From UHGV virus genome UHGV-1373641: 64,000 nucleotides of DNA. One strand, written 5' to 3'. Origin of the DNA: a virus. The notes beneath the pieces were generated by a model. It saw only the letters and a list, made by a program, of their open reading frames with translations. It did not search any database and had not been told where the DNA came from. Shown one piece after another: positions 1,427 to 36,358 of the stretch. How positions within the stretch are numbered: the first letter of the stretch is position 1; each line of letters opens with the position of its first letter. The translations under genes were made by a program, and so were the position numbers.

Positions 1427-4400
1427 TTATATTCCTACTGCTTTCCATACTACATTTCCGGTAGTACGGACACCTTTATTATTGAAAAGAGACACTCTGA
1501 AAAACTTGGGAGAAGGTATGTCTTGGAATGAAACCAAAGCTACCAATCCCGCATCTTCACTTTCAGGTGCAGCCGTAACTTCCCATATGTCAAGGAATGG
1601 CATTGAGAAATTCACCAAGTTTCCAGTATCATCTTTATTTTCGGGCCATTCGGGGCCGTTCGTATTTGCCTCAGCTAGTGCGACGCCAGAGTCATTTCGA
1701 ATCTTAACATCGAATTTAAGGTTTAATTCGGATACTCGGATAAGTCCTTTGGAACCCGGAAGCATACTAAGCGTAAATCGGATATACCGGAATCTTTGCA
1801 AAAAGACCTGCGTAGCATTTTCGGTAGCCAATTCCCACGGATCACTCTTATCTATTTTATATTCAATCTTTATCGAATATAAGGGTGTTCCGGAAAGAAC
1901 TTGAATAGTGGGGGTAACAACAAGCCTGATGGACTGCATGATTTGTCCATAATCAAATTCTTCTTGATACCATCCCTCTGAACCTGCTGGTTCCATCCAA
2001 GTGGGTCCGGCAATGTCCACCTTGTTTTTCCATGTGGATGCCGCAGTAGTTCCACCAAATCGTGCGATATTTTGTGCCCACGTTTCATTCTCGTTTACGA
2101 TAGGGCCAATCATCCCACCAACGCCGTCAAGAATAAAATTATGACGTGTTCCAGAGAAAACAGAATCCCAATCGTAGAAAAGAACATAATCAGGAGGTTG
2201 AGAAATAACACAGGTGATAGGTGATGCTGCGCCTTTATTTCCGGCTACGTCTACCGGAACAACCCAATATGTATAATTCCCGGATACAGCTTCAAAGATA
2301 TTGACGATTAAAGCGTTGACATTGAAAATAAGTTCCGCGTATTCCAATTCGTCTCCACGAAGTACTTCATAATGATGAATTGGGAAGAATACCGTGGAAG
2401 GTTCAGTCCAAACAAGAAGCGCGTTATTGTCGATGACGGTAGGAGTTATATAAACTCTGCCGGGAGCTTCGACTCGGAAACTCGTTTGACCCCATGCTCC
2501 AGCATTTCCTCCAGTATCCCAACTACGAACCCTGAAAATGTGGTTTCCGGTTTTTTCAGGAGGTACGACTATCTGTGTCGCATTAATCCTTCCGAAAGAT
2601 TCTCCTGTTGTACTATTTTCTATCTCGTATTCAGTTATTGGTAAATTGATTGTTGAAGGCGCTACCCAAGAAATAAGGATTTTATCTTCTTGAATTGTCG
2701 CTTTTACAGTTGGTGCTGCGGCGGCTTTAATCTCGATAGAAACTTCACCCCAATCTCCATAGTTACCGACGATATCTCGTGCTCGGATTTTCCATTCATG
2801 AAACCCGACAGCTCCCGCAGGAACTCGGAAATAGTTGACTTTCGCTCTACCTACCGGAGTGAAATCCCCTTCAACGATTTCGAATTCATCTATGGGGAAT
2901 GCGGACGGAGTAATAGGCCATTCTAACAGAATATCAGCGCCATCAATTCTTGCTGTCGGCTGGACCCTCCCGAGAAGATCCACTTCAATAAATGTAGGAA
3001 CAGCATTAGATTCATTTCCAAAAATATCTATCGCTTTCACTGTAAATTTATACCTACCTACAGGTCTTGGCGACACATATATTGAAGTCACATTAGAAAA
3101 TTCCGTTCTTGACATATATTCATCATGAACTTCATAATTCTTGATAGGCCAAGAAGTTGTACAATCTGTCCAACTCAATTTAAGGCCATCAATAGTGACT
3201 TCCGTTTTAATGACAGGGTTTTTAGGTTTTTGAATAGTAACAGAAACGGGGGCAGGATTCAAGGAAAAATTTCCAAGCGTATCTACTGCGCTAACTGTCA
3301 TATTCAATGTGCCGAATTTATTTGGGACGGGAAGTATGATACTCGTGTCAATCGTTTTCCCTGTAATGTCCCCTTGAACAGCATAGTAATCTATATCAAG
3401 AGTGGCTACGGGATTCCAACTGATTTTTACCCCGGACGGAGGAAGAAGCTCAGCGGTAACGCCGTCCACATCAGGAGGCGGCGCGGTTTTTCCAATAACG
3501 AAATATCCGGTTTGAGTTATCCAATCACTGCTAATTCCCCGTACAGGATCGGTAACTTGGATAGACAAGTCATATAGCTCACCAGACTCCATATTCGAAA
3601 TGACGACATATCCTTCGGATACGGAAGTTCGAACGGTATTGCCCCAAGCTGCTTCTTGCGTTTTCTTTGCACGGGCGTAAACCACACAATCTAACGAGGT
3701 TCCATCTCCAACCTTAAACCAGATACCAACCTGAGGAATGATATTCTGCCCAATCTTAACGAGCATGGACTCATCGGAAATTATCTGTGTAATAGTAGGA
3801 TTAGGAATAGTATAAGTAGGTAGCTTGTCAATAATAATAGGAGGATTCCAAGGAGGAATTTCTCCTTTATCCGCGTCGAGGACTTCGGGAGAATACGGAA
3901 TCGCCTTAATTTCAGCCGAGGAATTTTCGGCGGGCGCAATCTGAGTTACAAGGTATTTATCATTCGCTTCACCCATTAATGATACGCTAGCTAAATCTCC
4001 AATATAGGGAGTAGTAGCATATGTTATTGCAAAAGTAAAATAAATATGGGAATGTTCCTCTCCAAATTGTGGTTGAATTTGATAAGTAACAGTTTTTCCA
4101 TATGGATTTCTGATTGCAATACCGTAAATAACATCACGTTCGCTAAAGACAATGGAATCATCAAGAACGACACCTACGGCGGGAGTATCAATGGGCCTTT
4201 CGGAATTTTCGTAAATAATATATTCCGTCCCTTCCGTATCCTGATAAATCAACCCTACAACACGAGCCGCCCCGAAAGTGTTCATGAGAACGTCATGGAA
4301 AATTTCAATAACGTCTCCGCGATGACACATTCTGTGCTCCCAGTCAGCATTAATTGTAACGCTTAGGGGACGAAGAAGTTGTGATGCTAAATGATATCTT

Positions 4401-22386: not shown

Positions 22387-22830
22387 CTACAACTTTACGA
22401 TTCTTTGGTTATTCGATGCCAACTTTATTCCGAATAAAGGTTCTATATAAGATGGTTTTGTTTTATCATACATTCCGAGCTTGGCATATTTTAACAGGTG
22501 GTGAAGCGGCTTAGGAATTTTTTCATATCTTGTCCATAACCAAATCTCCTGAAAATACGCATTCAATCGAATGATAAAGTTTTGAAGAGAAATCAAATTC
22601 TGATCAAGAGGTTCTCCTCCCAAAATCCAAACTTTTTTTACTAATAGTTCACTGTCTTTAAAAAGTCCAGAATTTTCTTGAGTTTTAAGCCATTCCTGAT
22701 ACGGAATCCCCTGATTGAATTCCCAAAGTTCTTTGTTATGACATCCCTCACAATGAGGTGCCTTACATCCGGAAAGATATATTTCCAGTGCCCGATGAGC
22801 CAGATTAAATTCTGTGCCCGCTACTCGCAT
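22387..22830 (-). CDS. nrdG: Anaerobic ribonucleotide reductase activating protein (radical SAM)
   Basis: Cys cluster CKAPHCEGCHNKE and GGEPL motif typical of NrdG activases. Overlaps the nrdD stop. Confidence 0.75.
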   Translation of the reverse strand: MRVAGTEFNLAHRALEIYLSGCKAPHCEGCHNKELWEFNQGIPYQEWLKTQENSGLFKDSELLVKKVWILGGEPLDQNLISLQNFIIRLNAYFQEIWLWTRYEKIPKPLHHLLKYAKLGMYDKTKPSYIEPLFGIKLASNNQRIVKL

Positions 22831-25766
22831 CTCATTTCTTCCTTACCATAGAACTGGCGATTGGGACGGTCTTTTTCACGGCGAACCTTATTCCAATTTT
22901 TTACATTAGTAAAGAATCCGACAACACGGGTAATCTCCTCAGACCATTCTTTGCCACAGGTAGGGCATCTGTCGGAACCCACCCAAGTATGGTTATCATC
23001 GCAGATCCGAAGAAGATAGTTTACTGCCCAATAAACAACGCCAGACTTTGCGGCATAGATGATAAGGTCTTCGATGTTCTTCGTGTCCTCAATTCTCTCA
23101 CCAACATTGACATGGCAAATCGCTCCACCCGAAAACAATCCATCGAATTTTCCTTGGAGTCTAATACGGTCGAGCATATTGGCTTTAGCGATAAGCGGAA
23201 TAAACTGATTCGAATAGAAGGATACTCCACAATCGTAACCAAGGACTTTATCTTTCTTCGCGAGTTTCACAGAGGATGACTCGGCAGGAACCTGTTCACA
23301 ATTATGAGGAGCTTGATACAATTCTTGAGCTTCATCAATCCAAAGGTTAATCTGTTCAAGAGTCCGCATCACAAGATCTTGCCCATCCTCATCCAAAATG
23401 TCCTTTCCGAGGATGCTCACTGCTTCATAGAGTCCGGTGACTCCAAAAGTCGAATATTGTTTAGTAATATCCATGTATCCATGCGTGTACAAAGGCGCTG
23501 CGCCAAGGTCAATTCGACGCTGTACAATCTTGCGTTTAGCGTTATTGATTTTCGCTGCGGTAAAAAACGCATCCCTAAGCTTATCAATAAACACGCCCTC
23601 ATCTCCCCCCGACTGCATTGCAAGGCGAGGGAAGTTTGCCGTCACAACACCAAGAGATCCAATTTTTGTGCTTCCGGAGCCGAAAGAATTAAAATACTCA
23701 TTTTTCCTGTCCGAGCGCAAACGACAGTTATGGGTGATTACGCCATTGGGCAAAGTGAAGTAAGGTTCTTCCGGATTCTGCATTTCAAAACAATATACGT
23801 ATTCTTCGTCGTAAGGAACTTCTTCGACACTTTCTACCTTAAAATACACAGAGTTGTTTCTTACCTTGTATACGCCCGGATGCTCACGACGATTCTTCAA
23901 ATCATACCAACGGATACAATATAGGGGGTAATTCCGAGAATAGTTCTTTCCGCGAATCTCCACCAACTCATCAGTGCGATCCGACAGGTCGATGTTGCTA
24001 ACCATACCCAGAGAAGTAAGGATGGCTTCTCCAGTTTCGATAAGCTCTTTAGACGTAGAATAAATACGATTGCTATTTCCTCCGTCAGTTGCATACCATC
24101 CGGCGATGATGCCCTTGCGGAACTCTGTGGATTGAAGAAGAATGTTCATATCAAACGACTTCTCTTCCGCATAAGAACCTTTAACATACTTCCCAATAAT
24201 ATCATATATCGCCTTAGAATAAATTTTGGCAAACACAACTTTGTTCCGGGACGGATTAATATGGAAGTCCTCTTCAATACCCCAATCTTTTGCGGCTTGA
24301 ATAAGCGTGTCGATACAACCGCGCTTCGCTTCACTCAAAGAAAAAGTCACATCGTAACTTTCGACGCCCTCTCTTGCATATCGGCTTCCATCGCCAGCAT
24401 AGGCCCCAATGAGATACCCCTGAGCATAGGTAAGGTGCTCATCTTTTTCATTATAAGAGTTAAGCTCCCTCATACTGAATCCGATATAATCATCAGTAGT
24501 CAAATCAACAGTAGTTTTATCCCCAGAGAGAGTATAGTTGATATGATTATCCGTTACAACAAATTCCTTCTTATTAGAAAGAACGACCTTATACATCTTA
24601 TGGCCCAAAACAGGAAGCATCACGGGCTTTGCCTTGACCCAAGACCCATTGTGGAATACAGCGAAGTTCTTCCTATAAAGATCATAGTTGGATGATTTTA
24701 CGATATCACGAATATCCGCAAGAACCACGCCATTACTGGATTTCGTAAGGACTTTCTGCCCTCCAGAAAAACAGCATGAACTCAAAGTTGACATTTTGCC
24801 ATTATACATATTGATAAATCCGAACTCTTTGTTCTTCTCAGCAATGAACTTTACAAAGTCCTTATCTACGATATTTCGGTCGTCATCAATAGAAAAACAA
24901 GCTGTCGTTACGGGAAACGTAAGAGGCGTTCTCCGCATCTCTTCATTCATGGCGTCGAGGAAAAGCCCCTGCAACTCATGAACAGTTTCAGGATTAGCGG
25001 CTTTTCCGTCCATCATGTAATCAGGACAGAGGGATTCAAGGAAATTACGGTCGAATACAGAAAGATTGGAAAATGGGCTTTGATTTCCCCGGAATTCCCA
25101 ATTCACCGTATAAATAAAATTGATAAGTTTTTCCTTTACATATGTTTTATAATCATCAACTTTAATCCGACCATCGTATCCGATCTTTTTCATTTTTTCT
25201 ACGAAAAGAGATGCCACAATAAGAAAATCTGCAAATCCGGTAGCTCCCAAGGTTGAGTTTGCAGCAACAACCATAAACTGTTCTACTTGACGCACAAACG
25301 TCTCCAAAGATTTAGGAGCGCTCACACGAACTCGCTTAGATACGCCTTCCAAACCATTAAGAGCGATATCATAAGTAGAATAATTAAAACAATAGGGAAG
25401 GGCTACATCAGTGGAGTCGTTAACATAAAGATCACCACGAAGCACTTTTTCCACGACAGTATTAGCTTCAAGGAGCCCATAATCCTTTTTAATCTGTTTC
25501 CAGAGGAGGAAATAACTATTGTACTTTTTAATGGGCTTCGGCATTTCATGATTATACTCAATAGATGTCCGCGCACATACATTGGCATTAGAGTCTACGG
25601 AAACATCTGCCGTTGTAGTATCCGTATTAAAAAAATCTTTAGAAAACTTATTGATATCCATCTGATCGCCAATTCCATCCAAGGTCAAAAAGTCCCTGCC
25701 ATATTTAGCGATAAGATACATCATAAGGTCATAGAACTCTTGATCCCAAGTAATCTTAATATGCAT
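22821..25766 (-). CDS. nrdD: Anaerobic (class III) ribonucleoside-triphosphate reductase, interrupted by an intein
   Basis: N-terminal ATP-cone-like region. C-terminal CPTCGKEW zinc ribbon and TRVVGFF glycyl-radical region. 981 aa against ~630 expected. Intein junctions SSC/CFSGGQ... and ...VITHN/CRLRSD. Confidence 0.85.
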   Translation of the reverse strand: MHIKITWDQEFYDLMMYLIAKYGRDFLTLDGIGDQMDINKFSKDFFNTDTTTADVSVDSNANVCARTSIEYNHEMPKPIKKYNSYFLLWKQIKKDYGLLEANTVVEKVLRGDLYVNDSTDVALPYCFNYSTYDIALNGLEGVSKRVRVSAPKSLETFVRQVEQFMVVAANSTLGATGFADFLIVASLFVEKMKKIGYDGRIKVDDYKTYVKEKLINFIYTVNWEFRGNQSPFSNLSVFDRNFLESLCPDYMMDGKAANPETVHELQGLFLDAMNEEMRRTPLTFPVTTACFSIDDDRNIVDKDFVKFIAEKNKEFGFINMYNGKMSTLSSCCFSGGQKVLTKSSNGVVLADIRDIVKSSNYDLYRKNFAVFHNGSWVKAKPVMLPVLGHKMYKVVLSNKKEFVVTDNHINYTLSGDKTTVDLTTDDYIGFSMRELNSYNEKDEHLTYAQGYLIGAYAGDGSRYAREGVESYDVTFSLSEAKRGCIDTLIQAAKDWGIEEDFHINPSRNKVVFAKIYSKAIYDIIGKYVKGSYAEEKSFDMNILLQSTEFRKGIIAGWYATDGGNSNRIYSTSKELIETGEAILTSLGMVSNIDLSDRTDELVEIRGKNYSRNYPLYCIRWYDLKNRREHPGVYKVRNNSVYFKVESVEEVPYDEEYVYCFEMQNPEEPYFTLPNGVITHNCRLRSDRKNEYFNSFGSGSTKIGSLGVVTANFPRLAMQSGGDEGVFIDKLRDAFFTAAKINNAKRKIVQRRIDLGAAPLYTHGYMDITKQYSTFGVTGLYEAVSILGKDILDEDGQDLVMRTLEQINLWIDEAQELYQAPHNCEQVPAESSSVKLAKKDKVLGYDCGVSFYSNQFIPLIAKANMLDRIRLQGKFDGLFSGGAICHVNVGERIEDTKNIEDLIIYAAKSGVVYWAVNYLLRICDDNHTWVGSDRCPTCGKEWSEEITRVVGFFTNVKNWNKVRREKDRPNRQFYGKEEMRCE
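23727..24773 (-). mobile_element. Intein with LAGLIDADG homing-endonuclease domain inside nrdD
   Basis: Block A CFSGGQKVLT. Two LAGLIDADG motifs (LIGAYAGDGS, IIAGWYATDGG). Terminal HN followed by +1 Cys. 349 aa; removing it restores the conserved SCCRL region. Confidence 0.75.
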
Positions 25767-29527: not shown

Positions 29528-32458
29528 TTATTTTCTATAAAATTCTCCCCTCCATCCTTCGGCCTTTACTGGCAGACCTTCCGCCCATTGAGGAAGCTTG
29601 CACATGATATTTTCAAATTCCTCGACAGACCCAAACCCTTTAGGAACCTCAGCAATGATTTCATCGTGAACATGAAACACTACCGGATAGTTGGCTTCTT
29701 CGAGATTGAACATCGCATTCACCATCAGATCTCTACAGAAAGCTTGTGTAACATTTTCTGAAAGTATGAGATGGTTAAGCGGCCTTCTCACAAATTGTTT
29801 TTCTGGCGTCAAGGTCATCGCCGTAACAAGCTTCTTGAACGCTGGCTTTTCTGGAGTAGACCATGCCATCTCCACATCTTCAAGTTTAGGCTCGAAGTAG
29901 AAGAGGAACCTGCCACTAGGGAGCTTCATAAGGAGGAATCTCTTATAGTATTGGAATGATACTCCACGATAAGAATAAATTCCGCCCTTATTCGTCATAG
30001 CCATGACAGCAGCTTCAACGAGTTTGTGCCAAAGCTTAACCGTCATTGGGTGCCCGTCTCTCCATGCAGCAATAATCTTCTTTCCTTCCTCTTCATCAAT
30101 GCCCATTCTATCAGCTCCAAAGCGAAGGAACGCGCCATAACCACCTCCGTATCCACAGTTATGCACAATGCGTGGACCGCAGGATGTATGTATCATAAAC
30201 CTGCTTTTATCTCCACAATTCAAAAGATCATAAACTTTTTCTATTTTAGTATAACCATCTCTATTAGATAAAATGCTCCCAGTAAGAATAATTTCATCGC
30301 TATCATCTTTTTTGATAAACTTTAAAATCGCCATATTTATTTTATTATAGTCCTTAATAACGGCTTCACTCACTTTAATATTCAGATAATTTTGAGCTGT
30401 TGAATACTTAGAAAAAATCGTAGCTAAAAAGACGATAATGGAGCATACATATTTAACTTTATCTTCAAGACTCGTGTTCCTTAAGCTTTCACCCAAGTAT
30501 ACATAAACACCTTTTCTACTTTTAGAATCAACAAAGGATACATTAAAGTCATCTTCGTCAAAATCGGAAAGAATTACTTCAATTCCCATTTCAGCTATAG
30601 TTACTTTTACTGGGTATTTCTTCAAACTATAAATAATTTTATCTTGAACTTTTGAGATTTGATAACTAACCCAACTAGAGAATATTTGATATTGCTCGCT
30701 AGAATAAACTTTCCCATCTCCTAGCCATTTACACAATTCAATAGCTGCATCGGAGTCTATCCAAATATTTTCATCCATCAACCATTTTTGATCAGGCGTA
30801 GATTCTACTCCCAAAAAATTAACGATTTCTTTAATACCTTGGCAATATGCTCCATCTGTCAAACACCAGTTTTCTCCATCCCATACATAATCATCTTTAG
30901 TTATGTCGACGATTTTTTTTATTCCATAGCTCGTATAAACCATTGTATCCGCAGAGAAGCAAGCCAACGTAGCCGTCTTACCTACTTGACGCTGCTTCTT
31001 ATCCACATCTTCATATTTCACCCCATAGATAGTCGTAGCTGCAACTTTATACGGGTCGAGGCCATCCCTAAAACCTTGAAGAACATACTCTTCGCCAGCG
31101 AGATATGCCAATGCTCGGGCTTCAATCCCACTATAGTCGGCACAGATAAAATCGTATCCTTTTCTAGCGTGAATCATTGCGCGAAGGCAATCGGAGGCAA
31201 GGACTTTAGGGTCTTTCCAATACTGCTGGATAAGATCTAAATCCCCGCTAGCTGCAAGTTCGATATCCATTTCACTGATATCATAATTATCCAAAGGCTT
31301 GGAACCTTCGGGTATATTCATATTATTTGTTGAAGGTCTAGTCAAATTTTGCGGTTGAATAAGAGCACCAGCAAATCTTCCCGTAGAGGCTCCATGATAT
31401 ATCATCGTTCCATGCGCCCTGCCATCATAGCACGAAGTACAAAGCATGGTCTGATATTTTGCCGTAGAAGACATGGCAATAGTCTGACGAATCTCAAGGA
31501 ATCTACGAACATCGGAGGGGAGATCAGTCCGTTCAAGAAGGTCGGAGATAGCTTGCTTGCTTGCCGAATCAGTATCAACCCCACGAGATTGAAGCCATTC
31601 AATAATAGACTTGGAAGACTTCATGGTAGATACAGCACCATACGTAATCTCGGAAGCTTCCTCCGTCAAAATATCTTCTACTTTATTAACCATATCCATA
31701 ATTTTGACCGCGTGAAACCTGTCAATTCCTACTCCACGGTCATTGATCGTCTGGTCGAGCCGCCACACTTTAAGCTCCCGCTCAGGGATAGGAGGAAGCT
31801 CCATAAAAAGAACTTCTTCCGCAACCACGTCCTGTCGACAATATTCAACATATCGTTTAAACATTGGCTCGTCACAAGGATAGACAATATATTGATGGTA
31901 GTTTTTAATGGTAGGAATGCCACCTTTTGAAAGCACGGCATAGACGTACTCTTGAGTAGCCTTAGCCTTTTCGGGGTCTGGAAATGCGGAAAGTTCGGCT
32001 TTACGGAATTTCCTAGGCTTTGACATTTTCATCATCAGCTTATGCCCTTCATTATCCTTCTGAGGAGCGTCTTTTCGCCAAACCTTTACCGCTTGTTCCA
32101 GTTTACGGGGAAGGTTGCACATAAGGGCCTGAGACATCGTGCATCGAATTTTCTCTAATGGCAATGGCTTAAACCAGAGAGGCTCCATCTTGAACTTCCA
32201 AATGGCTCTTTCGAAAGGGGCGTTATGTGCTGCAATCTCTTCACAATTATTAATAATATCCTGCAATTCATCGTCGCTCAATTCAGTATCAAGAAAATGC
32301 CTATATGCCGGAGCTACCCATACACGAGCCTCCTGTCCACATATACGGACGGCAAGCATCATCACCTCAGTATCAGGGTGCGCAGCATATGCGTAAGCTC
32401 CACAGGTTTTAATATCTACAGGGGACCTCGTTTCAAAGTCAATTACGGATTTCATCAT
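29528..32458 (-). CDS. Family A DNA polymerase with N-terminal DnaQ-like 3'-5' exonuclease, interrupted by an intein
   Basis: Exo I IDFETRS. Motif A CADYSGIEARALAYLAGE. Motif B RQVGKTATLA / CGYGGGYG split by a 268-aa insert. C-terminal HVHDEI motif C. Confidence 0.85.
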   Translation of the reverse strand: MMKSVIDFETRSPVDIKTCGAYAYAAHPDTEVMMLAVRICGQEARVWVAPAYRHFLDTELSDDELQDIINNCEEIAAHNAPFERAIWKFKMEPLWFKPLPLEKIRCTMSQALMCNLPRKLEQAVKVWRKDAPQKDNEGHKLMMKMSKPRKFRKAELSAFPDPEKAKATQEYVYAVLSKGGIPTIKNYHQYIVYPCDEPMFKRYVEYCRQDVVAEEVLFMELPPIPERELKVWRLDQTINDRGVGIDRFHAVKIMDMVNKVEDILTEEASEITYGAVSTMKSSKSIIEWLQSRGVDTDSASKQAISDLLERTDLPSDVRRFLEIRQTIAMSSTAKYQTMLCTSCYDGRAHGTMIYHGASTGRFAGALIQPQNLTRPSTNNMNIPEGSKPLDNYDISEMDIELAASGDLDLIQQYWKDPKVLASDCLRAMIHARKGYDFICADYSGIEARALAYLAGEEYVLQGFRDGLDPYKVAATTIYGVKYEDVDKKQRQVGKTATLACFSADTMVYTSYGIKKIVDITKDDYVWDGENWCLTDGAYCQGIKEIVNFLGVESTPDQKWLMDENIWIDSDAAIELCKWLGDGKVYSSEQYQIFSSWVSYQISKVQDKIIYSLKKYPVKVTIAEMGIEVILSDFDEDDFNVSFVDSKSRKGVYVYLGESLRNTSLEDKVKYVCSIIVFLATIFSKYSTAQNYLNIKVSEAVIKDYNKINMAILKFIKKDDSDEIILTGSILSNRDGYTKIEKVYDLLNCGDKSRFMIHTSCGPRIVHNCGYGGGYGAFLRFGADRMGIDEEEGKKIIAAWRDGHPMTVKLWHKLVEAAVMAMTNKGGIYSYRGVSFQYYKRFLLMKLPSGRFLFYFEPKLEDVEMAWSTPEKPAFKKLVTAMTLTPEKQFVRRPLNHLILSENVTQAFCRDLMVNAMFNLEEANYPVVFHVHDEIIAEVPKGFGSVEEFENIMCKLPQWAEGLPVKAEGWRGEFYRK
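30158..30961 (-). mobile_element. Intein inside polymerase motif B
   Basis: Block A CFSADTMVYT. Terminal IVHN followed by Cys. Internal LCKWLGDG resembles a single degenerate LAGLIDADG motif. Excision restores KTATLACGYGGGYG. Confidence 0.7.
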
Positions 32459-33774: not shown

Positions 33775-33838
33775 ATTTGCTCTCCTTGTTGATGTTTTTT
33801 ACAACCTATTAAATTACGCTTTTCGTGTCAAGAACTTT

Positions 33839-34027
33839 TTATGCGGAAGGATACCCTTTTCCATTCCAATAACGTATAGCATTGATTTCATTATCGGATA
33901 TAGGGCCTCTAGCACGACATTTATTGCATTGCACCTGATAAATATCGACTTTACGATAATTCTTTAATCCGGATCGAATTACGAGCTTCCCCTTTCCCCC
34001 GCAGTACAAACAGTTTGATATGGTCAT
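33839..34027 (-). CDS. Lar-family-like zinc-ribbon protein
   Basis: 62 aa with CLYCGG...CNKC paired CxxC motifs. Confidence 0.3.
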   Translation of the reverse strand: MTISNCLYCGGKGKLVIRSGLKNYRKVDIYQVQCNKCRARGPISDNEINAIRYWNGKGYPSA

Positions 34028-34107
34028 AGCGTATCTCTCAGTATAAACGTAGAGTCCCCGCTCTTTGCTTTTTTTAGCTCGGATGCGGGGACTTTTGTTA
34101 TAGGGTT

Positions 34108-34434: not shown

Positions 34435-35094
34435 TTAGAACGGCACATCATCGGAGGAAGAATCTTCCGAACCACCGTAGGTTACATCGTTATTTTCTTC
34501 GGTGCCATAGAGTTCGCCAAGGTCGACGGGAGAGCTTCCGGCAAGACGCTGCCCTTCACCAGTCTTTACGACACCCTTGAGGGAAAGGAAGCACCCGGAT
34601 TCGGTTCCCGGCTTGTCATTATAGTAAACATCCATGATGACATCAGCGATACAGCCCGCATAAAGTTCCTTTTCGATTTCTTCTTTCGATTCGAGCTTCC
34701 GATAAGTCGTAGGGCCAGTCTTGACACCAAGAGCAATAGGATACTTGTTTTTGACGCTCATGAAAACAATATCGTCGCAATCGCCACTCGGCTTGTACTT
34801 GCCGTCTCGAAGAGGGAAACCATCCTTACCTTGCTTCGACAGATACGTATCAAAAAATCCGGGCTCACGGAAATCAACTTTCCACTTCTTCTTATCCGGG
34901 CCAGCGCCCTCGGTATAAACTTCCTCAAGCACGGAGCGCACTTTCTTAATCGTGTCTACGTCGCTCTTGGGAATGCGCGCTTCAATGCTGTACTGAGGGT
35001 CTTTGTTCTTATCATTAGGATTGACTACGGGCTCGGAAAGATGAGGATAAGAAATAGAAGCCTTGAAAATAACGCGCTTAGTAACTCTTGCCAT
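34435..35094 (-). CDS. Phage ssDNA-binding protein (DUF2815/gp2.5-like) with SSB-type acidic C-terminal tip
   Basis: 219 aa ending SSSDDVPF, like the SSB DDDIPF tip. Immediately downstream of the DUF2800-like nuclease, a common phage replication-module arrangement. Confidence 0.5.
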   Translation of the reverse strand: MARVTKRVIFKASISYPHLSEPVVNPNDKNKDPQYSIEARIPKSDVDTIKKVRSVLEEVYTEGAGPDKKKWKVDFREPGFFDTYLSKQGKDGFPLRDGKYKPSGDCDDIVFMSVKNKYPIALGVKTGPTTYRKLESKEEIEKELYAGCIADVIMDVYYNDKPGTESGCFLSLKGVVKTGEGQRLAGSSPVDLGELYGTEENNDVTYGGSEDSSSDDVPF

Positions 35095-35095
35095 T

Positions 35096-36358
35096 TTAGT
35101 TTTCCTCTTGTTGCGAATAAAATTCGTCGATAGATGTTAATGGATTTACGGATTTACGTTTATCGTTTTCTGGTTTTAATTCCATACCGGATTCCGGTCT
35201 AAATGAGTAGAGATCAATTTCCTCTCCTGTCAAAATACCTTCTAACTTAGATGGCGATTTTAACTTTCTCTCCTCAAAAATTTCATCTCCATATTTCAAA
35301 CTTAGCTCTTGGGCGGTGAGCGCATTGTCCCTCCAAACTCGTCTCGATTTTCTTTTTTTAACTAGCTTAAACCCCGGAACTAATCTTCCAGCGACAGCGT
35401 CTTCATAAGCGGATTTTGCTACCGCTTCGATCCAAGGGGCGTACACAATCGATAGATGCAATATACGAGACTTTTCTTCACTTGTCAAGTGTCTTGGGTC
35501 TGGAAGTTCAATATTTTTTTTCTTTTCTTCTATATAGTTGTTATAATTTACTAAATATCCAAGGTCTTTTTCGATCTGAGGACAAACTCCAAAAGCCGGG
35601 CACCATTTACAGTGATCTCCTGATGAAAATTCGGCATCAGGGTCTTCTGTCTTTTCCACCGCAGGACGTAATTCCGTTTCAGCCCAGAGATAGAGGTCAT
35701 CGATCTTTAAACTATACGAACTTACTCCAAAACAATCGTTTCTCGGCTGGACAATAACCATTACTACTTCGTCAAAGTCGTCATTCGATAACGGCTCTCC
35801 TACAATACCCAAAGCATAATATTTCATTTGGGAATTATCGATGGCGGTTACTGGCGTGCTCTTTCCATATTTTAGGTCGAATACATAGAGTCTCCTATTC
35901 TTATAATCTTTGTAATTACAGTCGCATGTACCGAACATCCCTTCCTTTATCCAAGTAAGAGCGAATTTTTCCTCGACGGACAGCTTCTTGCTATCCCCTT
36001 TCTCAAACTTTTCAAAATGGACATTTTCGGTGTCGATTTGAACAAGGTCGCCATTCTCGTCCATCCACAATTTTTGATTATGAACTACGTAAAGAATGTG
36101 GCCTACGTAAAGAGAGACGCTTTTTATCATCTCTTCTTCTATCTCAAAGGAATCTCCCTTTACGTAGATCTTTTTTCCTTTCTTACAGGCGGGATACATC
36201 TCATTTTTAAGGCAGAACTCCGCTAGAGCATGTGCAGCAGTGCCCTCTCTTGCTGCAAGGCTGTCTTCATTTTTGAGCCCAACACTCATCCTGACGGAAG
36301 CGGGACACGCCATCCATCTTTCTGAGGAAGAGGCTCCTATCCTGCTATGTTTTCCCAA
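35096..36358 (-). CDS. PD-(D/E)XK nuclease, Cas4/DUF2800-like, with C-terminal Cys cluster
   Basis: N-terminus SSERWMACPAS. Conserved acidic/Lys core. Cys cluster CKWCPAFGVCP. Confidence 0.6.
   Translation of the reverse strand: MGKHSRIGASSSERWMACPASVRMSVGLKNEDSLAAREGTAAHALAEFCLKNEMYPACKKGKKIYVKGDSFEIEEEMIKSVSLYVGHILYVVHNQKLWMDENGDLVQIDTENVHFEKFEKGDSKKLSVEEKFALTWIKEGMFGTCDCNYKDYKNRRLYVFDLKYGKSTPVTAIDNSQMKYYALGIVGEPLSNDDFDEVVMVIVQPRNDCFGVSSYSLKIDDLYLWAETELRPAVEKTEDPDAEFSSGDHCKWCPAFGVCPQIEKDLGYLVNYNNYIEEKKKNIELPDPRHLTSEEKSRILHLSIVYAPWIEAVAKSAYEDAVAGRLVPGFKLVKKRKSRRVWRDNALTAQELSLKYGDEIFEERKLKSPSKLEGILTGEEIDLYSFRPESGMELKPENDKRKSVNPLTSIDEFYSQQEEN

Follow-up and report, generated by a model that had tools for sequence, protein, structure and literature searches.

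Inteins that interrupt phage DNA polymerases are known and annotated, as in the Jerseyvirus "intein-containing DNA polymerase precursor" (MW790495, QXH32885.1). In actinobacteriophages, "non-canonical" inteins have been described whose homing endonuclease gene uses a different frame or the antisense strand (Gosselin, Arsenault & Gogarten, bioRxiv 10.1101/2025.01.02.630785). The host proteins in that preprint include DNA polymerase, the out-of-frame nucleases are endonuclease VII-like, and HNH nucleases are reported in frame only. A hidden out-of-frame HNH gene has been found in the ShiLan insertion, which is not an intein and has no splicing domain (PMC11855218). Here we examine the family A DNA polymerase gene in a 64,000-nucleotide stretch of the UHGV virus genome UHGV-1373641 (hereafter the window). 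A 268-codon insert in this gene is an intein that splits polymerase motif B. The presence of an intein in a phage polymerase is known; what is new is the combination of Gln at position B:10 of block B with an orphan middle segment, in an intein derived from a family that carries an out-of-frame HNH gene. Taken together, we consider it likely that this is a class-1-type intein without an endonuclease, derived from the out-of-frame-HNH family, that persists by descent and recombination.

The polymerase of the Salmonella phage MW790495, the Jerseyvirus mentioned above, belongs to the same family as that of the window (~28% identity over 99% of the query). Its intein lies in motif B too, and has homologous ends of the splicing (Hint) domain (CLHRHTQVLTDGGFKDI...VYDLIDVEDGNRFLI...AHN/C; here and below, a slash within a motif marks the splice point). 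However, block B of the Jerseyvirus intein reads TEDH, with the His residue, whereas that of the window intein reads TPDQ, and the Jerseyvirus intein contains a nested HNH open reading frame (ORF), unannotated in the record, that the window intein lacks. The Jerseyvirus intein is also inserted four residues upstream, at RQIGKA/C (K-A/C-E-L-G-L-G-Y) as opposed to RQVGKTATLA/C (K-T-A-T-L-A/C-G-Y). Related inteins therefore occupy two splice points within one 12-nucleotide stretch of the target.

The window polymerase is encoded as a precursor with 3'-5' exonuclease and polymerase domains (Table 1). The Pfam DNA_pol_A profile matches the ORF with an expectation (E) value of 1.8e-18 and ends at residue 497, just ahead of the insert; motif A is DYSGIEAR (residues 441-448) and motif C is HVHDE (residues 929-933). 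In translation, the insert comprises polymerase residues 500-767 (CFSADTMVYT...GPRIVHN), flanked by RQVGKTATLA and CGYGGGYG within motif B (R-x3-K-x7-Y-G). The boundaries and length given in an initial annotation of this DNA were exact on retranslation. The GC content of the insert is 0.32, compared with 0.446 in both exteins. Removal of the insert leaves 976-268 = 708 amino acids, equal to the length of the intein-free homologue P0008, and thus the polymerase has one intein only. The initial annotation correctly placed an intein in motif B, but the other intein that made this one the "second" resides in nrdD and not in the polymerase.

Table 1. Features of the polymerase intein, its host gene and its relatives. 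Positions are those of the named sequence.
Feature	Sequence	Position	Strand	Basis or remark
Family A DNA polymerase precursor ORF, 976 amino acids: 3'-5' exonuclease and polymerase domains, one intein	Window	29528..32458	-	ORF list
N-extein, residues 1-499; last part is the first half of motif B, RQVGKTATLA	Window	30962..32458	-	
Intein, 268 codons, 804 nucleotides, GC 0.32	Window	30158..30961	-	
N-terminal splicing (Hint) segment, codons 1-73; block A (Cys1) and block B	Window	30743..30961	-	AF2, phmmer coverage, dN/dS
Block B core, T55-P-D-Q58; Gln at the near-universal His position (B:10)	Window	30788..30799	-	
Remnant of nested HNH gene start, ATG GTT GAT GGA TGA (MVDG-stop), frame +2	Window	30771..30785	-	
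Orphan middle segment, codons 74-239, GC 0.29	Window	30245..30742	-	Open in intein frame only; KWLGDG at 30713-30730
C-terminal splicing segment, codons 240-268; block F (VYDLLNCGDKSRF) and block G (IVHN)	Window	30158..30244	-	AF2, invariant residues
C-extein: Cys+1 (TGT, 30155-30157), then second half of motif B, CGYGGGYG	Window	29528..30157	-	
nrdD ORF (anaerobic, class III ribonucleotide reductase)	Window	22821-25766		Host of 349-residue intein
nrdD intein, 349 amino acids, two LAGLIDADG motifs	Window	23727..24773	-	
Nested HNH ORF, 285 codons, frame +2, intein codons 59-345, starts MVDGRKYMG	L005	4671-5528		PHROG match
Homologous nested HNH ORF	L012 (P0033)	2023-2757		Same strand, other frame
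Homologous nested HNH ORF	L013 (P0016)	2063-3064		Same strand, other frame
Homologous nested HNH ORF	L014 (P0065)	2180-2887		Same strand, other frame
Homologous nested HNH ORF	L001 (Jerseyvirus MW790495)	1916-2659		phrog_374, E=1.2e-47; equals 34568-35311 (complement) of the record, by conversion

Splicing residues, a fold model and a precisely empty allele agree in identifying the insert as an intein, as had been proposed initially. Cys1 (TGC), Thr55 of block B, Asp245 of block F, His267-Asn268 and Cys+1 (TGT) are all present, and the C-terminal end reads ...VYDLLNCGDKSRFMIHTSCGPRIVHN followed by Cys+1, with the His-Asn pair of block G and the Asp residue at F:4 in place. An alignment of 18 inteins from this polymerase site shows no variation at C1, T55, D245 and N268, and the site-b inteins never differ at V243, D245 or N268. 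When the insert alone was searched with HMMER against 1.84 billion representative proteins, 1136 matches were found at E<=0.001. The best 150 of these 1136 cover the N-terminal ~75 residues of the insert and a second stretch, and weak matches to the middle segment may lie beyond them. With the 18-sequence alignment, AlphaFold2 (AF2) yields local confidence scores (pLDDT) of 89-98 for residues 1-70 (95-98 within residues 1-60) and 94-96 for residues 241-268; from the single sequence, the mean is only 37.7 and the model is unusable. In a Foldseek comparison of the alignment-based model with the PDB, the top 14 matches are all solved inteins (probability 0.80-0.99, E 0.01-0.26), namely the AceL NrdHF, Ssp DnaB, Npu DnaE, gp41-1, and Msm and Mch DnaB inteins. 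The family profile also matches the Neq PolB and Mtu RecA intein sequences (E=0.0015-0.01).

Not all searches recognize the insert. Pfam is silent on it, the NCBIfam model intein_Nterm reaches only E=0.035, under its cut-off, and phmmer found no match among PDB sequences. A homologue search by word index, with only the intein as query, came back empty, yet the database contains the 99% identical P0001, which the whole precursor did retrieve; we treat this search as uninformative and sub-domain negatives of the method as unreliable. The Pfam and NCBIfam results could be taken to favor a native insertion that the polymerase tolerates, or a group I intron whose open frame is accidental. However, all of the intein junction residues are there, the best structural matches of the model are inteins, the insert lies inside a catalytic motif, and a precise empty allele exists. 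Moreover, Rfam gives nothing for the region at E<=1, and neither a terminator-like site nor notable repeats are present, leaving an in-frame group I intron unsupported. We regard the probability of either explanation as close to negligible.

The empty allele is found in L003, a closely related metagenomic phage, whose polymerase (P0008, 708 amino acids) reads KTATLA-C-GYGGG. The DNA of its empty site is ...ACGTTGGCT TGC GGATACGG... (extended right flank GGATACGGAGG...), and the empty-site target is …ACGTTGGCTTGCGGATACGGAGG…, which in L003 takes the form …GGTAAGACGGCTACGTTGGCTTGCGGATACGGAGGTGGC…. L003 and the window are identical at 60/60 and 57/60 bases of the junction flanks, the DNA of the exteins is 96-100% identical, as far as the junction on the N-extein side, and the difference in length is exactly 804 nucleotides. 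Polymerases P0007-P0010 are intein-free and their alleles read KTATLACGYGGGYG; Cys+1 is therefore native to the polymerase. Inteins of 107-374 amino acids are found at the equivalent point, K-x3-L-A/C-G-(Y or F), in at least 34 distinct polymerases, some of them only 34-46% identical. In clusters formed at 90% protein identity, 107 member sequences accompany the intein-bearing cluster and 46 the intein-free one. The initial annotation named as its refutation the occurrence of the same segment, devoid of splicing motifs, in homologous polymerases. In some of the homologues examined (P0007/P0008, L003) the segment is precisely absent, and in the others an insert bearing splicing motifs occupies that point, so this check favors an intein.

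Sister inteins of 374 amino acids (P0002-P0006, P0011-P0014; L005, L006) reveal where the window intein comes from. They occupy the identical site in near-identical phages and share the TPDQ block B and matching Hint ends. The Hint ends of the window intein align with those of the L005, L006 and P0011-P0014 group, and phmmer gives 58-73% identity to sisters P0014 and P0003 over the matched Hint stretches (nonsynonymous divergence, dN, ~0.09). What lies between the ends differs. The sisters have a middle of 270 codons in which a 285-residue HNH protein is encoded in frame +2, whereas the window intein has an unrelated, AT-rich middle of 166 codons. The L005 ORF matches the PHROG HNH family phrog_374 (E=1.7e-28). 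Read in the intein frame, the middles of L005 and L006 show 59.5 nonsynonymous versus 4.5 synonymous differences, a ratio of nonsynonymous to synonymous divergence (dN/dS) of 3.5. Across the HNH ORF, dN/dS is 0.11 in frame +2 but 2.4 in the intein frame for the same bases.

Such an ORF is present in 5/5 large related motif-B inteins examined (L005, L012, L013, L014 and L001), with matches to phrog_374 for the last four at E=1e-21 to 1e-47. A zinc ribbon and the motif DRID-x4-Y-xPGN-xRF...EN..N-R are common to the nested ORFs, whose existence explains the odd Arg/Ser/Thr-rich "middle domains" of large motif-B inteins. The L005 polymerase is at least 95% identical to that of the window over its first ~900 nucleotides and then only ~70-90% identical through both intein flanks. 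The divergent stretch looks like a recombination or co-conversion tract brought in with the intein.

The window intein has lost the nested HNH gene of its family. At the position that opens the 285-codon ORF in L005, four codons are kept and the fifth is a stop, and each of the five non-intein frames of the middle has 7-30 stops. Neither tblastn nor a hidden Markov model (HMM) of the HNH ORFs detected any remaining HNH similarity in the window intein, whatever the frame. Thus, the window intein is a derivative without the endonuclease gene of its family. It has no demonstrable homing endonuclease, and we infer that it lacks nuclease activity.

The relatives of the window intein and the actinobacteriophage inteins share a layout in which splicing halves in the host frame enclose a nuclease gene in frame 3. 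In the window copy the secondary ORF is gone and the splicing domain is kept, a stage that was predicted but is undocumented for the actinobacteriophage type (bioRxiv 10.1101/2025.01.02.630785). Two nested ORFs of the relatives also match an endonuclease VII PHROG weakly, and may therefore belong to the same broad group as the actinobacteriophage nucleases. The family of inteins with an out-of-frame HNH gene reaches past actinophages to uncultured, metagenome-only phages and to Jerseyvirus.

The second unusual property of the window intein is in block B, where the signature Thr-x-x-His reads TPDQ; intein residues 1-73 contain no His at all. Among 240 related N-terminal domains, drawn from the fetched related proteins, the B:10 column holds 225 His, 13 Gln, two gaps and nothing else, and the Thr is present in 240/240. 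Gln occurs in all 10 sequences of the window subclade and in three outside it (P0174, P0192 and P0249). His at B:10 is essential in many inteins (PMC4031507, PMC6333167). Block B Thr-x-x-His, the best conserved of the intein motifs, is typical but not obligatory, with Tko CDC21-1 as an accepted exception. As of 2014, two catalogued inteins lacked this His, one a pseudogene and the other Tko CDC21-1 (PMC4031507). Tko CDC21-1 resembles the window intein in keeping the other class 1 residues, but has a Lys58 outside the conserved blocks that compensates and a bulky Leu at position -1 (Tori et al. 2012, via PMC4031507 and PMC6333167). The window intein has Gln at B:10 itself and Ala at -1. With its conserved Gln and small Ala, it is therefore a rare variant.

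The splicing segments evolve under strong constraint. Compared with the sister inteins, dN/dS is 0.11-0.17 for the N-terminal splicing segment and 0.11-0.15 for the Hint parts at a synonymous divergence (dS) of 0.6-0.86. Among nine DNA copies of the 268-residue type, these segments have nine nonsynonymous and 15 synonymous polymorphisms, a nonsynonymous-to-synonymous ratio (pN/pS) of 0.14 (p=3e-6 versus neutrality). Given this purifying selection and the location in an essential motif, the window intein is probably competent for splicing, and selection argues that the conserved Gln58 is functional.

If loss of the block B His had instead left a splicing-dead pseudogene, the polymerase would be inactive and the phage would rely on another polymerase. 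The need for this His in many inteins and the pseudogene among the two earlier exceptions speak for such an outcome (PMC4031507, PMC6333167). Nonetheless, it is very improbable in view of the selection just described and of the persistence of Gln across the subclade at dS up to 0.86, with recurrence in the three outside sequences. In addition, the remaining catalytic residues are all intact, the frame is open over 166 AT-rich codons (chance 8e-7), the exteins are still nearly identical to those of intein-free relatives, and the allele is common.

The middle segment that stands in place of the HNH gene resembles nothing that we could find. Homology to the nearest relatives stops at codon ~73 and restarts at codon ~238-240. 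The only homologue of the middle among 268 fetched proteins is the 99% identical P0001. Searches of 50,697 phage records at the protein and DNA levels gave chance-level matches only, IMG/VR contains only copies that are 97-100% identical, and Pfam, PHROGs and PDB sequences gave no LAGLIDADG or other match at E up to 10. Homology to the middle of the 374-residue sisters was considered and rejected, as BLASTP and phmmer were not significant and the MAFFT matches were forced. With the alignment, AF2 assigns residues 81-240 pLDDT values of 34-66, mostly <50, and the predicted elements are unreliable. The nine DNA copies show 13 nonsynonymous and eight synonymous polymorphisms in the middle (pN/pS 0.39, p=0.048 versus neutrality), and an earlier view of a neutral middle, founded on a 7:2 count in a smaller sample, was withdrawn once more sequences gave 13:8. 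The constraint on this segment appears relaxed, not clearly neutral; its open frame is required for polymerase expression in any case. A role of the AT-rich segment at the DNA or RNA level was also rejected, with no Rfam family, terminator or meaningful repeats found. Promoter-like matches number 13 versus 7.7 ± 2.7 in shuffled controls, a modest excess.

The initial annotation had noted a single degenerate LAGLIDADG-like motif in this segment. The hexapeptide KWLGDG is there, at intein residues 78-83, and hhalign matches the register of the first LAGLIDADG half-domain from the nrdD intein family over 74 collinear columns, but at P=0.039 and an HH probability of 1.3%, while the domain and structure databases yield nothing. 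Several points weigh against an endonuclease-less intein derived by gene loss. The LGDG sequence has its acidic residue correctly placed within that collinear alignment, and an unrecognized in-frame endonuclease is therefore possible. The pN/pS of the middle, marginally below neutral, does not differ significantly from that of the Hint parts (p=0.14), and all 268 codons are kept in 18/18 copies (nine at the DNA level and 11 cluster proteins, with possible overlap). At dS ~0.8, the middle may have arisen either through in-place decay or because foreign DNA replaced the original segment. Because one of the two His-less inteins known earlier is a pseudogene (PMC4031507), a dead intein would also be compatible with the sequence by itself.

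Homodimeric LAGLIDADG enzymes such as I-CreI have ~165 amino acids, the size of the middle segment. The segment could be a homing endonuclease of the single-motif LAGLIDADG type, active and in frame with the intein, that replaced the out-of-frame HNH, in which case the intein would still be self-homing. The Asp of KWLGDG at the catalytic position, the collinear profile alignment, a pN/pS slightly under neutral, the invariant length and the abundance of the allele (107 cluster members) are all consistent with this possibility. However, the middle has no LAGLIDADG match in Pfam, PHROGs or PDB sequences even at E up to 10, and the nrdD intein of the window is recognized by Pfam. Furthermore, the HH probability is low, no second motif is present, the AF2 model has no confident fold and puts a long helix in place of the first beta hairpin, and homologues beyond near-identical copies are absent from the protein, phage and IMG/VR collections searched. 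We judge an active LAGLIDADG enzyme improbable and retain the reading of an endonuclease-less derivative.

If the intein splices as proposed, the precursor would be translated through the insert, and Cys1 would attack the Ala(-1)-Cys1 peptide bond. The N-extein would then be handed to Cys+1, Asn268 would cyclize with the help of His267 and free the intein, and an S-to-N shift would restore KTATLA-CGYGGGYG and an active polymerase. The first step must be activated in the absence of the usual block B His, since B:10 is Gln58. The nested HNH gene is truncated after four codons, and the 166-codon orphan segment stands in its place.

Without an endonuclease of its own, the intein would persist by vertical descent and by recombination between co-infecting phages, a mode of spread that we infer. 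It may also exploit breaks made at the same target by the HNH proteins of sister inteins. The N-terminal polymorphisms S11R, Y12D, I14V, I20V and M7K match residues of the sister inteins, revealing exchange between these intein types, so that the sister HNH may plausibly be used in trans. The catalytic motif split by the insert is essential to the replication polymerase, and the phage lineage is abundant in metagenomes. A bolder proposal would portray the window intein as a "cheater" in a widespread and unannotated family, one that discarded its HNH gene, yet remains the commonest allele, splices efficiently with Gln and, during co-infection, is copied into breaks that sister HNH proteins make in trans. 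We put this forward only tentatively and regard it as rather unlikely in full.

The initial annotation also noted that the two inteins of the window have an identical coding sequence at their C-terminal junctions, and took this as a hint of related origin or gene conversion. The identity itself holds: the window contains ACAGTTATG at two positions only, 23724 and 30155, each of them a His-Asn/Cys junction, whereas 0.29 occurrences are expected by chance. However, the nucleotide identity comprises CAT AAC TGT only and ends on both sides, so that it is limited to the canonical His-Asn-Cys codons. With genome codon fractions of 0.75 for CAT, 0.27 for AAC and 0.62 for TGT, the same spelling of both junctions has an expected probability of ~20%. 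BLASTP finds no significant alignment between the two inteins, and the closest true relative of the polymerase intein, its sister, spells the junction CAC AAC TGC.

The two inteins also belong to different families, one the nrdD type with in-frame LAGLIDADG and the other the polymerase type with out-of-frame HNH. The nrdD intein is of the canonical LAGLIDADG type and has, like the polymerase intein, Hint-N, a middle domain, Hint-C and a His-Asn/Cys junction. It differs in having two LAGLIDADG motifs, a Pfam match (LAGLIDADG_3, 25.7 bits against a cut-off of 22.5; Intein_splicing, 30.7 bits, below its cut-off of 35.8) and a GC content like that of its host gene (0.419 versus 0.414), none of which is seen in the polymerase intein. 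Its 86 homologues, up to 53% identical over the full length, are mostly in NrdD proteins. Recent common origin of the two inteins, or sequence exchange between them, thus has next to no likelihood.

Other sites in the related polymerases are also occupied. The polymerase is split at STGRF/C...SN/S in L006 (4643-6001 and 6001-9207), L007, L009-L011, L015 and L017. There, a 91-residue N-intein half ends in TAA, which overlaps the ATG (TAATG) of a 24-residue C-intein half (MRTYDILNAGPKNRFMANGKIVSN), and the arrangement resembles a natural split intein whose halves have no gene between them. In the window this site is empty (STGRFAGALIQPQN, 31346-31387). A third intein site, SEN/C...HN/CTQAF, is occupied in P0012-P0014 and L008 by inserts apparently of several lengths (an estimated ~324 amino acids in P0012, shorter in P0013 and P0014). 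The corresponding window site (29738-29764, LSENVTQAF) is empty. Occupancy varies between polymerases of two 90% clusters, which include intein-free, site-c only, site-b only and multi-site forms. Outside the polymerase, L005 has an IS605-type OrfB/TnpB-like gene (420-1595, with a Cas12f1-like TNB domain) between an HU-like gene and a 349-residue ORF; the window has no OrfB/TnpB-like gene at the corresponding place (~33800-34100).

The motif B site thus exists in three states, empty, filled by an intein with an overlapping out-of-frame HNH gene, and filled by an intein without that gene, in phages with polymerase genes as much as 96-100% identical. These states form a natural series in which to study how inteins acquire homing endonuclease genes, overlap with them and lose them. 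Large "domainless" inteins, including the well-studied Jerseyvirus ones, may hide nuclease genes that gene callers miss. The window intein also presents a natural Gln-for-His replacement at the most conserved intein residue, kept under selection and only a few mutations away from relatives that bear His. With these relatives as controls, activation of the N-S acyl shift without an imidazole becomes directly testable. If the tentative proposal of an intein that profits from sister HNH proteins is true, it would amount to hyperparasitism among selfish elements, and the first step of splicing would have a natural alternative chemistry.

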